A stretch of 64,000 nucleotides of DNA from Eledone cirrhosa (Eukaryota), in contig OZ024751.1 in assembly GCA_964016885.1 (NCBI GenBank), positions 50,654,001 through 50,718,000 of the forward strand, given 5' to 3'. This document shows, piece by piece, positions 1,220 through 63,207 of this stretch; position 1 is the first letter of the stretch, and the number at the start of each line of letters is the position of its first letter. The translations under genes were made by a program, and so were the position numbers. Under the pieces are notes generated by a model that saw nothing but the letters and a program-made list of their open reading frames with translations, did not search any database and was not told where the DNA came from.

Positions 1220-1276
1220 ATATAAATTAATAAAATAATGAATAAACAAAGAAACAGTTCCTTATATTAAAAAAAT

Positions 1277-1418
1277 TCATCATTTTACGATCGTTTCTAG
1301 GATATATATGTGTTAGAGTTGGTATGCATATTCTATAGATCTATGTACAATATTTATACAAACTATCAGAGGAAATATACATACCTACACATATATATGC
1401 TGTCTTCAGAAATAATGA
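1277..1418 (-). ncRNA. Type I hammerhead ribozyme with ~105-nt extended stem II
   Basis: Minus strand: stem I TCATTATTT/AAATGATGA (9 bp, one GU); CTGAAGA 1409-1403; stem II ATATATATGTGTAG/CTAACACATATATAT and GGTATGTATATT/AATATGCATACC; GAAA 1297-1294; palindromic ACGATCGT; cleavage after GUA (1286/1285). Confidence 0.82.
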
Positions 1419-3343
1419 TATTTGTTTATTGAAAAAAACAAAGATTCAATACAATAGGTCTGTTTGGGAACAGGTTTTGAATTGACTAATAGAGAGATAG
1501 TGAGGGTCAAGATAGTAATATAGTAGTAGAAGAACCTTAAATTATGGGTAGAGGAAGGTAGATTTCAGTTTTGGATGGAAAAGAATATTATGAATGAAGG
1601 ATTATTTTAGGGAAGAAAATAGGTCATATGCTGACCTCAGAAATAAATATATTTGTTCATTGAATAAAACCAACAAACATCTAATATATTGTGTCTGTTT
1701 GGTAAGAGGTTTAGAATTAACCAATAGAAAGTTAATAATTGGCCAAATGGTAAAATAGTAGTAACTGAAGCTTATTTTAGGGGTGAAAATAGGTCAGGTG
1801 GTCAGTAAAAGGTATACAAGCAGTTGCTGTTATAAAATAGTAATGCCAATGTAAATATCTAAGGAGACTAAAGTTTTACGATAAGAGTGTTAGTGAAAAA
1901 AATACATCTATGAAAAGAATATAAATCAATTTAATTGATGGGTATATTTAAAATGATAAAATTATACTAATACATATAGATATGATAAATAAGAGTTAGA
2001 TGAAGTTAAAAAGTGCTGTTAAAGATGAGGGGAAATTAAGAGAATATAAAAATAATATATATATATACACATAAATATATATATATATATATATATATAT
2101 ATATATATGATATATATATATATATATATATATATATATATATATATATATATATATATATATATATAATAAATATATAATATATATAATATATATATAT
2201 ATATATATATATATATATATAATATAAGATCAAAAGATGGTTAAAGGAGTTCCATGTATTTTATTATGCGCATTTCAAAAACAAACATCATCATGCAATA
2301 ATATTTGTATTTTCATCAGATAAAACAGGAGAACATGATATGAAGGCTAAAAAACACTTGTGGATAGTGCAGTTTTAAATCAACATATGAAAAGTGGTTT
2401 TAGATTGATGTGTGATATTGGGAAAAATATTTTATTTAGAGAGGGGGGGGGTGGAAAGGATGAAAAAGGGAAGGAGATGAGATAGTTTTTATAACTGAGA
2501 GGAGATATATTGTTTTACATAGAGAGGTTGAAAACCGTTGGAAGATAATGTATAAATTAAAAATTAAAAAAAAAAAAAAAAAAATTTTGAAAATTAACGA
2601 AGGGAGGATATGTGCGAGGAAAAAATATTTTATTTAGGGAGGGTGGGTGGAAAGGATGAAAAAAGGGGGAGGAGATGAGAGTGAAGGTGGAGAGGGAGAG
2701 ATGGGTGATAGAGAGAAAGAGATAGTTTTTATAACTGAGAAAAAGATATATAGTTTTACATAGAGAGGTTGGGAACCGTTGGAAGATAATGTATAAATTA
2801 AAGGAATTTGAAAATTAACGACGGGAATTTATGTATGAAGATAGAGAGAAAAAATAATAATTGTGGATGAATATTCTAACGTCAAAAAAAGAAATGTATG
2901 TTGATAAGATATTGTGGCAATTTCAAAATTAACGAAGAGAAAAATTATTAAGGTTTGTGTGTAGAAGGATTTGAGAAAAATAATGTGGAGTTAAAGTTTG
3001 TATATTGAAGGAATTGATAATATATCCGAATAAAGAGTTAATGTGTATTAATAATGAGTTCGTTGATGGGGAGAAAAAAATAATAAATTAAGGATGAAAT
3101 TGAGATTAAAAAGATTTATGATAGAGAGAAAAAATAATAATGATTGCGGATGAATATTCTAACGTCAAAACAACAAATGTATATGTTATGATTTTACAAG
3201 GTGGAGATAGAATGAGGGTAATGAGTAAACAAGTATTATAGAGTGTATAATGCCCTTTAAAGTAAGGTAGATGGGTATATTTTAAAGAGGTGTATGTATA
3301 TGTGCCTTTGAGAAAAGATTCTAAATTGATAAAGAATTGAATA

Positions 3344-4915
3344 TTAACTGTATACTTTGTGAAAAGTTCTATGGAATTTATGCAGGCAGATAGAAAACAA
3401 ATCTGTACGTCTATTTATTATAGAATCTAGGTTAGAGATAATGGTAAATTTTTCATTTAGGCAGAGATTACAGATTTTAGATAGAGAGCTGTTCAAGTAT
3501 GAGGATGCAGAAGAAATCTTCTTCCAAAAGATGGTATATTTAATGTTTTTGTCTTTTAAGGACCATATGAGTTCTGAGAGAGCAGTGTTGGTTCTTTTAA
3601 GTTTGTATTTGAAAGATGAATGATGATTATAGAGACGAGCTTTAAAAGAGGTGGAAGTGGAGCCAAAATAGGTGAAGGAATTGGTGCTAGTTATAATTTT
3701 ACATTCATAAATTAAGTTTTTATCGAGACAATGGTTGTTGAGAGGACATTTATTTTTAATGCGGCAGTTGCAATTAGAGAGATTATTAATGAGTGACCTA
3801 GTGTTATCTATAGAAGGAATTGGATTGGAGAAGTTGTTTGCGATAGGAATAATAGGAATAATAGTTTCTTGATTTAGAGTTGGATTATGAACATTTAGCG
3901 AAGTTGTGTTTGACGTTGTATTTGGGTTTACAGAAGTTAGCCTAGGGTTTACAATGACGTCGGGAGTACTATTACTGTTATTATGAAATTCAATATTGGA
4001 AGGAAGAGATTTAGTATTTAGTATTTTATTGTTGTGTTTAGAGATGATGTTGGAAATATTGGAGGATGTAGAATACGAAAATTTGATGGTGTGTTTGTTA
4101 AATATTTTACTATAGATATGTGAGGGAGGGAAGCATTTATTTAAGGCACTAAAAAATAATTTAGGAATATTGTTATTAATAGAGATGGAGAAAGGAGCAT
4201 TATACCAGATTATGTTTTTGTATCTAGGTCTTTTATTAAAATTATTGGAATGGTCATGATTAATTATTCTACTGTAAGTTTTTCTAGAATTTGTTTCTTT
4301 ACTATATTTGATTTTATCTGGATAGCCGGCTTTAGAAAGTGCGTTATTATAGTAATTGGCGTTAGCATCAAAGATGTTTTTATTAGAAGATATGTTAGAT
4401 ATTCTTTTTCCAATATTATTAACTATAGCATTCTTGATATTGGTAGGATGGTTAGATTTAAAGTTAACATAATTTAGGTTCTCATTGTTTTTATGGTAAG
4501 GGTAATATAGGCCAGTGTCAAGATTAAGAGATACATCCAAGAAATTAGCTAGTTTGATACTATTATCAAATTCAATTTTTAGGTTATGTTGGTTAAAGAG
4601 ATTACGTATATTGTTCTTAATAATATTAAGGTTAACTATATTGCAATTTAGGATAGTAAAGAGTCCATCGTCACGATAAATTCCACCGCGGAGTTGAGGA
4701 ATTTTCCGACTCAAAGAGTTCAAAATGAAGATACCAATTAAATCAGTCAATTGGGATTAATCGGATGCTCCCATTGTGATGTCGAAGTTGTTAGAGGTAT
4801 CGGCTCTGGTCCAATATTCGTTGTTGAACTCTAGGATGGTTTTACGTGCGGTGAGGATGATGTGAAGTTCATCTGTGGTGATGTCAGAATATTTAAGTGC
4901 GAAAGATAGAGCATT
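3344..4915 (-). pseudogene. Penelope-like RT + GIY-YIG endonuclease, 5'-truncated, with premature stop
   Basis: YRDD motif, FLDVSL, CNCRIKNKCPLNNHC, IY...YFGSTSTSFKARLYNH, CNLC..CLH. Homology continues upstream of the called ORF through an in-frame TAA at 4759-4757 (NFDITMGASD*SQLTD) to about 4915 (NALSFALKYSDITTDELHII). Confidence 0.93.
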
Positions 4916-4918
4916 ATA

Positions 4919-5010
4919 TTATGTATACTCCAGTCCTACAAACTGTAGAGTGCTTCTTATCCGATATCTGCATTGCTTTATTGTACTACAATAAAACTCA
5001 CCTCCTACAT
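4919..5010 (+). mobile_element. Inverted PLE 3' tail fragment
   Basis: TGTATACTCCA...GAGTGCTTCTTAT resembles the family-B tail (ACTCCA...GAGTGCTTTTATAT). Ends ...TACAT into (AT)n. Confidence 0.6.
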
Positions 5011-5152
5011 ATATATATATATATATATATATATATATATAATAAATATATAATATATATAATATATATATATATATATAATATATATATATATAATATA
5101 TATATATATAATATACAATATTAAATAAATGGAAAACTATATTTATAAAACC

Positions 5153-5229
5153 ATATTTATTTCATTATATATATTTCGGGGATATCATATTAACAATATG
5201 CTATGCCTTCATCAGACAAAATACAATAT
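5153..5229 (-). ncRNA. Type I hammerhead ribozyme
   Basis: Reverse complement of 12354-12430. Confidence 0.82.
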
Positions 5230-61735: not shown

Positions 61736-61769
61736 CTAGTATATTAAATCATTTTCTTTTACTGCTATC

Positions 61770-61890
61770 TTTTATTATTTTACTTGTATCAGTCATTTGA
61801 CTGCGGCCATGATGGGGCACCATCTTTATTTAGTTAATCATATCGATCCCAGTACTTATTTTTCAAGTTTTGTACTTATTTTGGTTGGTT
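61770..61890 (-). mobile_element. SINE 3' portion (degenerate)
   Basis: TTTACTTGTATCAGTCATTTGACTGCGGCCATG...ATCGATCCCAGTACTTATTTT; the last part is the reverse complement of the SINE core. Confidence 0.65.
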
Positions 61891-62054
61891 TTCCTTTGTA
61901 CCAAGTTTAGAGGCTGGAGTTATTAAGGTATTCTTAATAGGTTGCTTTAAGTAAATACTGGATGTAGGATTTCATGTTATATTACATTGAGGGTGGCTGT
62001 GGTTTGATGTTACATGAAGTCTAGATAATAAATAGGAATAAAAACAAGTGTAAA

Positions 62055-62235
62055 TAATTGTTTCTACTTTTGGCACAAGGCCAGCAATTACCCAGTGCAT
62101 TACTGGTACTTTATTTTATCGACCCCATAAGGATGAAAGGCAAAGTCAACCTCGGCGGGATTTGAACTCAGATCGTAAAGAGACGTAACTATGCTGGAAA
62201 GCATGGCGTCCGACCCTCTACCGATACTGCCGATC
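62055..62235 (-). mobile_element. tRNA-derived SINE copy
   Basis: Reverse complement of the 61541-61735 unit. Confidence 0.85.
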
Positions 62236-62449
62236 AGGGAAGATAACTAATTCTATGACTGGTGTATGTTATTTCCCCTGAAATAATGAAAATTATTGTA
62301 AAGACTAACATGAACAAAAAACGATTTTTATTTTGTTTGTTTGGATGCAGTCATAGATCCGGGGCCATACAGGAACACTACATTTTAGTCCATTTTTAAT
62401 CGATTATATTAACCACACAACTTTCTCTGGTACTTATTTTTCAAATAGT

Positions 62450-62562
62450 AGATTGGGAGAACAATCAGAACGTTAGCTATTTGAGTTCAAATGCGGCCGA
62501 AGTCAAAATTTCATTTTATTCTTCAGTTCTCTATGAATTAAAGTACCAGATATGCACTGGAT
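62450..62562 (+). mobile_element. Old degenerate SINE copy
   Basis: GAGTTCAAATGCGGCCGAAGTCAA...AAAGTACCAG..GCACTGG. Confidence 0.55.
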
Positions 62563-63060
62563 TTGCTTTAATATTTCTATAAATCAGCAAATATGTAATT
62601 TGAAATATGATAGACAATGAGAATAAAAGTAAGCCAAAATGTTTCACATATTCCCGGGGCGGTGTTGGTTACCTGTAAGAGCGAGCCCCGTGAGTTGGGG
62701 TGGCTGTTCCAGTGCGTCACCCTCGCCATCCTTCAGGGCAACGTCTTTATTCTGTCTACAGAGACCACGAAATGGGTTAACCCTTAGACAGTGAGGATTT
62801 ACTCTGACAGCAATGCTCAAATCAACATACACACACATTATATATATACATATATATATATATATATATATATATATATATATATATATATACACTAGCT
62901 ACCCAGCTACATAGTGTGCCACCGTAGCTCCTTCGAATGAAAGTTCTAGTCCTGCAGAAGCCATTTCTATATTAAAAATTTATACTCTGCTACCCACGAT
63001 TGAACCCGGGATACACACACACAGACACACAAACACATATATATATATATATATATATAT

Positions 63061-63207
63061 AGTAATAATAATAAATTTGAAGACTAAAATCAAAAGAGGG
63101 ATCGATAAGGATAAATATATATCAAATATATAAGAACCGTAGAGCCCCGTTAAGGGTGAAAGCAGCGATTCTTTGCTTAAACTTTAATCTGTTATTTTAA
63201 TAAATAT
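63061..63207. mobile_element. Miniature inverted insertion of the 29109-29282 family
   Basis: 63061-63145 = reverse complement of the 85-nt tail. 63146-63207 = AAGGGTGAAAGCAGCGATTC..TTAATAAATAT on +. (TA)n flanks. Confidence 0.65.

Follow-up and report, generated by a model that had tools for sequence, protein, structure and literature searches.

The closest described relatives of the insertions treated here are the Penelope-like elements (PLEs) of the Hydra clade, which have a C-terminal endonuclease (EN+; Craig et al. 2021, PMC8557442). According to the portions of that paper available to us, a limit that applies to every article cited below, these elements have one open reading frame (ORF) for a reverse transcriptase (RT) and a GIY-YIG nuclease with RWK-like, DKT, CxCx5C, CxxC and CxH motifs, are inserted into (TA)n and carry a hammerhead motif in their pseudo-long terminal repeats (pLTRs). 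They also form partial tandems and inverted, 5'-truncated copies, and a tail is often present at one end only. The origin of PLE inverted repeats, tails and partial tandems is a named open problem (PMC8557442, PMC11167929). The same features, with a candidate hammerhead, are found in a stretch of 64,000 nucleotides from Eledone cirrhosa (assembly GCA_964016885.1, contig OZ024751.1, positions 50,654,001 to 50,718,000 of the forward strand), all of which is referred to here as the window. Each of its six two-armed insertions is a Hydra-type PLE in which one 3' end is short (S) and the other long (L). As argued below from sequence comparisons, Hydra-type insertions with one short and one long outward end are likely to arise by twin target-primed reverse transcription (TPRT) from two fixed sites on one RNA.

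A related arrangement is known from the Penelope elements of Adineta vaga (Arkhipova et al. 2013, PMC3846280). One of their inverted pLTRs bears a 31-bp tail, and they have target duplications of 8-10 bp, palindromic junctions and an initiator-like pLTR motif. They differ from the elements described here in that they are present in few copies, and self-priming on an antisense template was proposed for them. The original prediction for the window, made from its letters alone, understated such knowledge: a tail on one of two inverted pLTRs (PMC3846280, PMC8557442) and two RT start sites (PMC11167929) had already been described.

Paired ends in the window

The insertions belong to families A, B and C. 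The reference unit for family B is 8620-12561 of the window (3,942 nt), in which S lies at 3850 and L at 3942. The insertions and their parts, together with a neighboring copy of a fourth family, D, are as follows.

5114-12561: insertion B1; S arm left, L arm right, joined 5' to 5', both facing out into (TA)n
5114-8551, minus strand: short-ended arm of B1, a 5'-truncated copy with an S-site end, 98.9% identical to the plus-strand arm
8547-8619, plus strand: tail remnant of B1, a partial tandem before the full unit, matching 12489-12561 at 100%
12470-12561, plus strand: 92-nt tail of family B, between the short end at 12469 and the long end at 12561
5101-5115, plus strand (left), and 12560-12574 (right): 15-bp target-site duplication of B1, the terminal TA included in each
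18003-18467: insertion B2, of an older subfamily; L arm on the left and S arm on the right, with a near-palindromic junction and a target duplication of 13 bp
18600-21489: insertion B3; S arm 18600-20496 (minus strand), L arm 20495-21489 (plus strand), 2-nt junction overlap, 13-bp target duplication
2221-5009: family A insertion; S arm 2221-4914 (minus strand) with an ORF remnant at 3344-4756, L arm 4915-5009 (plus strand), tail only
about 29113-29284: insertion C1 of family C; S arm left, L arm right
63061-63207: insertion C2 of family C; tail-only L arm left, S arm right
1220-2050, minus strand: one-armed S copy of family D, a family separate from A

The geometry that had been predicted for six insertions, with one S and one L end facing out into (TA)n, is real in B1 to B3, A, C1 and C2. 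In B1, B2 and B3 the arms are joined 5' to 5' and face (TA)n, and the L arm runs 92 nt past the short site, where about 93 nt had been predicted. The two arms of B1 have three differences in 2,320 scored columns, and the tail-to-5' untranslated region (UTR) junction has 68 exact matches genome-wide. The family A insertion has an 89-nt tail and its S end is at 2221; the prediction had the two-armed pattern right and the boundary wrong, since it began the insertion at 1220 and so included the one-armed family D copy. At two other loci (L048 and L071) family D is itself present as L/S pairs, the tail there being about 140 nt long. The copies predicted at 29109-29282 and 63061-63207, with a tail of about 85 nt, do show the same end pattern, with tails of 86-88 nt; the family, which had been called unrelated, is a PLE with a related ORF. 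An older B-like copy that ends at 595 is one-armed.

Pairing of the two ends across the genome

Counts in the 3.0-Gb genome were made with exact sequence patterns. Family B has 1,487 S-terminated ends and 1,517 copies that read through, a ratio of about 1:1, and 2,997 matches to its upstream body pattern. The ratio is also about 1:1 in family C (11,239 S-terminated and 11,261 read-through). The body patterns of families A and C match 14,377 and 19,559 times, respectively.

We classed 139 loci of the three families by hand, taking them in order from the start of one contig by means of a pattern upstream of both ends. Family B (59 of 61 clusters, from the first 100 matches) gave 43 S/L pairs, one near-S/L pair, one S/S pair, no L/L pair, ten one-armed copies and four broken or chimeric ones. 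The family A sample (40 of 70 clusters) consists of 27 S/L pairs, one near pair, no contiguous same-type pair, nine one-armed copies and three broken ones. Family C (40 of 42 clusters, from the first 52 matches, including three pairs of loci that look duplicated and are not independent) yielded 17 S/L pairs, one near pair, no same-type pair, 18 one-armed copies and four unresolved ones. Among two-armed copies with canonical ends, the ratio of S/L to same-type pairs is 43:1 in B, 27:0 in A and 17:0 in C. Overall it is 87:1 (87 of 88), with a binomial p of 3e-25 against an independent 50:50 choice of ends. The two terminus classes lie 86-92 nt apart across the three families. The bimodal distribution of ends that the prediction called for is found in the tabulated copies, with near-strict S/L pairing. 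The prediction had noted no same-type pair in the window, and the samples contain one, the S/S pair L032.

Three candidates for an L/L pair were rejected or set aside. In L152 the two ends belong to separate one-armed copies that lie 2.2 kb from each other, in L234 the sequence continues as far as an S end, and the flanks of L218 are inverted.

Two further observations concern individual loci. At locus L075 (1801-2349) a family-B long arm is joined directly to two family-A pieces in inverted order, which is either a deletion that joined two insertions or a cross-family template switch. One-armed copies (L018, L039, L154 and L157) often have short templated duplications of flank or element at the 5' junction, as would be expected from end-joining repair.

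Evidence for two primings

The S arm extends further 5' than the L arm in 15 of the 44 family-B pairs. The arms overlap in 38 of the 44 pairs; in the other six, the L arm starts at or beyond the S site and barely overlaps the S arm, or does not overlap it. Because of these two sets of pairs, two primings are needed. The longer S arms, together with the target duplications of 13-15 bp, support the predicted route, in which both strands of the cut would prime cDNA and the two cDNAs would be joined end to end.

These arms also bear on a scheme with a single priming, in which the cDNA folds back and copies itself and a nuclease trims the second end to give the tail difference, which is close to ideas in PMC3846280 and PMC8557442. 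Such fold-back would explain the identical arms and palindromic junctions and is formally possible in 29 of the 44 pairs. However, it cannot account for pairs in which the S arm is the longer one (15/44) or for arms that do not overlap (6/44, plus A and C2 in the window), nor can it give a tail from an S-primed cDNA. It already fails as a general route, and we consider it very unlikely.

A further suggestion would be that the inversions are fold-back or assembly artefacts. No independent read set has been shown to bridge a junction, and locus L218 looks like such an artefactual palindrome; contigs from public runs cover the element, list no strand-switch joint and are too short to bridge the junctions, so they are no evidence either way. 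However, the ends are asymmetric, the flanks carry direct duplications of 13-15 bp, the arms have private differences (32 in 13,200 columns), and the same form is present in records of other organisms and in the literature. We give this explanation almost no credence.

Evidence for one template

The two arms of an insertion carry the same alleles. They differ in two of 481 family-polymorphic comparisons, as against 21.8% between insertions (105 expected for random pairs), and 22 of the 24 informative arm pairs are fully concordant. The 5' ends of the arms are also informative, and two features of the window are needed to describe them.

12272-12290, plus strand: 5'-truncation hot spot, reference 3650-3671 (a 22-nt interval), where 40 of 88 family-B arms stop
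12352-12432, plus strand: hammerhead-like motif of the pLTR, minimal type I, read by eye, with a predicted cut after 12417

The 5'-5' junction had been predicted to lie at a different place each time, which is so in the window and not in the genome, as the hot spot indicates. The 5' stop classes of the two arms are concordant (16/1/1/12 in B, Fisher p = 1.9e-6; 5/0/0/7 in A, p = 1.3e-3). The hot spot is initiator-like and likely corresponds to the 5' end of the RNA. A splice acceptor at this position was set aside, as none of the arms continues from it into an exon further upstream. In L024, L025, L042, L052 and L075 the 5' stops form another cluster at reference 3613-3629, about 35 nt upstream of the main hot spot, mostly where the partner arm is kilobases long.

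Fourteen further insertions were selected because they gave tandem or same-type signals. In five of the 14 (L220-L229) each of the two arms is longer than one unit, and one arm spans 2.3 units. L219 and L230 are inverted insertions of a private unit of 189 or 195 nt that is repeated in both arms, with L on one side and S on the other, and this mini-unit contains both priming sites and both of the hairpins described below. The mini-unit junctions (L230:4897-5958 and L219:4844-5208) are near the predicted hammerhead cut and not at it, since they start 5 and 21 nt further downstream. The two insertions would be the expected product of two enzymes on one small circle, and a tandem source array would be the alternative. 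Circular PLE RNA has been proposed (PMC4209133).

We infer that both arms copy one template, because they share alleles, their 5' stops are concordant and the private mini-unit junctions are common to both. The other option in the original prediction was an RNA dimer. Twin priming would then start from two RNAs, joined for example through a palindromic hammerhead loop, with one RNA primed at S and the other at L. A dimer would make strand displacement unnecessary, minimal hammerheads have been proposed to act as dimers (PMC4209133), and the shared alleles could mean that one source is active at a time. However, with a dimer the pairs would be random unless a further rule made them S/L, an outcome that two hairpins on one RNA would give directly, and the 5' stop classes and private mini-unit junctions are common to both arms. 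A dimer is therefore disfavored against one template read twice, and we regard it as unlikely.

Of 49 junctions, 14 have a 1-5 nt overlap, five are blunt and 30 were scored as insertions, the scoring reference being different from many copies at this place. The predicted joining by microhomology is accordingly a part of the picture and not all of it. Some short junctions recur (L019, L055 and L030; L026 and L061; L050 and L076), as they would if ready-made S/L palindromes were transcribed and re-inserted whole, so that the pairing was inherited from a few masters. However, all 12 long-long junctions are different, a given junction can be found on more than one allele background and a given set of alleles with more than one junction, and one junction is present in both S/L polarities. 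That junction type does not track lineage is partly seen in the allele comparison. Because their allele backgrounds differ, the recurring junctions form anew, and re-insertion of whole palindromes appears highly improbable.

A predicted hairpin after each priming site

Two predicted hairpins lie in the reference unit of family B.

12475-12497, plus strand: predicted hairpin 1, which lies 6 nt 3' of the short priming site and is homologous to hairpin 2
8624-8644, plus strand: predicted hairpin 2, which lies 5 nt 3' of the long priming site

They are copies of one module, which consists of a stem of four pairs, a loop that varies and a 3' box that is conserved, and which lies 5-9 nt 3' of each priming site. 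Families A and C also have it behind both S and L, and by eye it can be seen in two or three further families in the genome. The outer pair is mostly G-C by eye; it is A-U after S in families B and A, and U-A in L291 and L296. A search of Rfam did not find the hairpin.

Relatives in metagenomes have the same arrangement. From 78 metagenome loci, the 46 with an ORF start and upstream DNA were scanned with a hairpin pattern tuned on the same data. At least one module was found in 38 of the 46 and two in 29, 55-83 nt apart, where shuffles would lead one to expect 0.71 and 0.01. A hammerhead-like core is usually upstream of the hairpins, by eye. In five loci a 3' end that runs into (TA)n could be mapped on the element's own 5' copy, and four of these end 6-9 nt before a hairpin; in L255 this is the second hairpin, and in L261, L286 and L291 it is the first. 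The end in L263 lies 7-13 nt ahead of a variant hairpin. The S/L inverted form is also seen in L259, from another organism and compared with L283, in which the inverted arm ends before hairpin 1 and the direct arm ends where hairpin 2 would start.

The probable target cut

Fifteen family-B flanks in imperfect TA are informative, and they show a direct duplication around the whole inverted unit. Its length is 14 bp in eight cases (one read by hand), 13 bp in three, 15 bp in two and ambiguous in two. Families A and C are mostly unreadable in this respect in pure TA, and the few informative cases loosely fit 13-15 bp. Since the target is duplicated and both ends are extended, the staggered cut presumably leaves 3' overhangs. 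The G beside the long terminus is replaced by a target-type base at 31 of 54 outer ends and kept at three of three internal junctions, which fits a primer that overwrites the G or pairs over a wobble.

A scheme for programmed twin priming

These observations can be joined in the following scheme, which we regard as the most likely one. Two copies of the protein would each bind one hairpin, and their nucleases would nick (TA)n about 14 bp apart to give two 3' overhangs. Each overhang would pair with the few A/U bases before one hairpin and prime cDNA synthesis; strict S/L pairing would follow because each hairpin serves one primer. Both enzymes would then copy toward the 5' end of the RNA, or round a circle, each displacing the other cDNA, and host end-joining would unite the two cDNA ends. 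A linear transcript would give the common palindromes of 450-490 bp, a circular or multimeric RNA would give kilobase and more-than-unit arms, and failure of one priming or later loss of an arm would give a one-armed copy. The protein dimer, strand displacement and RNA circle in this scheme are putative.

A wider proposal is that Hydra-clade PLEs in general carry a two-primer cassette, that is, a duplicated hairpin, each copy placed after a short TA-pairing stretch, that would dock two RT-nuclease subunits on one RNA. The target would be cut 14 bp apart, and one linear or circular RNA would be copied starting at each end of the break. Integration would then normally proceed by programmed twin priming, and about 190 nt of cassette would suffice for a double-ended insertion. 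We consider the case for and against this broader proposal to be evenly balanced.

Several points count against the scheme. One-armed loci make up 17-45% of the samples (10/59 in B, 9/40 in A and 18/40 in C). Therefore, twin priming is not obligate, as the original prediction had it, and the window itself holds two one-armed copies. A few one-armed calls may hide an arm, because the partner arm is merely 11-20 nt long in L064, L143, L161 and L188. In B and A integration usually yields two arms, but it does not do so obligately. The sole S/S pair is without a target duplication, and the targeted L/L case, L218, has a gap in the locus besides its inverted flanks and may be secondary. The samples come from the start of one chromosome and are biased to young copies. 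Allele sharing would also be expected with one active source locus at a time or with homogenization of the arms by gene conversion. A signature of collision at the S site was not shown, L-arm stops there being weakly enriched (3/44 in B and 2/27 in A). As for the hairpins, the variants were read by eye, and computed folds support hairpin 2 better; hairpin 1 is not formed in B and A, and another stem is preferred in B. Judged by mononucleotide shuffles, the folding energy of the S-to-5'UTR region is not unusual in A and C (z of -0.9 to +0.1), and it is lower in family B (z of -2.1 and -2.9). Finally, the RNA start site of an anole element reportedly lacks homology to the cut DNA (PMC11167929), in contrast to the short pairing suggested here.

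Element identity and related families

The assignment of family B rests on its one intact ORF.

8663-10876, plus strand: 737-aa ORF of family B, a PLE RT with a C-terminal GIY-YIG-type nuclease and Hydra-clade motifs, intact

In an alignment of 50 homologues the RT motifs (D258, D354-D355) and nuclease residues (Y617, Y630-G632, R641, H645, E700 and N712) are 98-100% conserved. The DKT motif (D118-K119-T120) is conserved at 100, 100 and 90%. The cysteines of the CxCx5C linker (C596/C598/C604), the CxxC motif (C694/C697) and the CxH motif (C721/H723) are each conserved at 92-100%. R37-W38 of the RWK motif are conserved at 92% and 94%; the third residue is R in the 737-aa protein and K in 60% of the homologues. 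Judged by eye from a listing of the Cys and His positions, no CCHH motif is apparent in the nuclease. Of 7,998 candidates that were scored, 143 are homologues of the protein at E <= 1e-20; among the 120 listed the identities are 30-42%, and the named ones are uninformative. Searches of Pfam and PDB sequences gave no match to the ORF. From its motifs, family B is assigned to the Hydra-clade PLEs.

The target of the families is (TA)n. Their units are 3,942 nt (B), 3,709 nt (A) and about 3,260 nt (C) long, whereas the length in the Hydra clade is given as generally less than 3 kb (PMC8557442); because of the word 'generally', a length above 3 kb is not a strict exclusion. The tails in that clade are 30-40 bp, as compared to 86-92 nt here (about 140 nt in family D).

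The family A protein is 40% identical to the family B protein over 394 columns. Family C is a PLE, since in L016 a related ORF (39% identity) is joined to its end, and L214 has a unit with a long related ORF. Further PLE ORFs with about 35-50% identity to the B protein were seen in the fetched loci L021, L032, L057, L063, L072 and L172, and because of them we conclude that the genome holds several more families of this PLE clade. An Rfam search did not detect the hammerhead-like motif of the pLTR. The two Rfam hammerhead matches in L291 are on the opposite strand, beyond its TA tract.

Other features of the window

28470-28990: element of about 520 bp, flanked by TA tracts and with an end segment that is repeated; it may represent a further non-autonomous PLE family
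28740-28810, minus strand: weak hammerhead HH9 match within this element (29.5 bits, E 0.0013)
22101-25238, minus strand: non-LTR retrotransposon, a 1,045-codon open frame with an AP-type endonuclease and RT (Pfam PF03372, PF14529, PF00078)
31108-57800: array of about 27 kb of degenerate short CA-rich repeats beside a 200-N gap, with very long spurious open frames
13798-14191 and 14266-14665: direct repeat of about 400 bp with 97.5% identity (span 13798-14665)
63236-63636, minus strand: short fragment between TA tracts, similar to the end of another non-LTR element ORF

Comparison with known systems

The most similar biochemical system is TPRT in vitro by the PAc Poseidon PLE (Frangieh et al. 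2024, PMC11167929). It has two internal RT starts that bracket the tail, both DNA strands are cut and extended, RNA is needed 3' of the start, hammerhead cleavage is not required and a dimer is predicted. It differs in that the two sites were not linked to opposite ends of one inverted insertion, and its start sites are inside the ORF, whereas those here are upstream of it. For the Hydra clade, PMC8557442 ascribes the tail to nuclease resolution, and its available text contains no pairing counts, target-duplication length or hairpin pair. Nothing on pairing is added by the available parts of a retrozyme preprint (10.64898/2026.07.22.740005) or a curation guide (PMC8969392). The literature searched, which did not extend to older subscription papers, gave no pairing count, PLE twin-priming model or duplicated hairpin. 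The anatomy was already known, and the pairing statistics, the evidence for one template and the hairpin pair appear to be new. Also added are the 13-15 bp target duplication and the failure of simple fold-back in 15 of 44 pairs.

The scheme joins inverted repeats, tails and partial tandems and offers parts that can be mutated, namely the two hairpins, the two priming stretches, the 14-bp spacing of the nicks and the minimal unit of 190 nt. PLE enzymes are the sister group of telomerase, and so an RNA element that positions priming would bear on the evolution of template-guided RTs. A retroelement that primes on both sides of its own cut would also be of interest for RNA-templated insertion. 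The genome has tens of thousands of these ends, and the palindromes are a large part of its (TA)n-associated DNA.

A further comparison is with LINE-1 (L1) twin priming (PMC11702581). There, too, the second DNA end primes a second cDNA, the junction is head-to-head and the target duplications are discrete, 12-18 bp in length. However, the second start in L1 is opportunistic and adjoins the end of the first cDNA, and the arms barely overlap. The PLE insertions of the present study have two fixed starts, most of them carry the same sequence in both arms, as noted above for 38 of the 44 pairs, and the two-armed form is the majority or near-majority outcome. In conclusion, the family-B insertions work like twin priming, but not in its L1 form.

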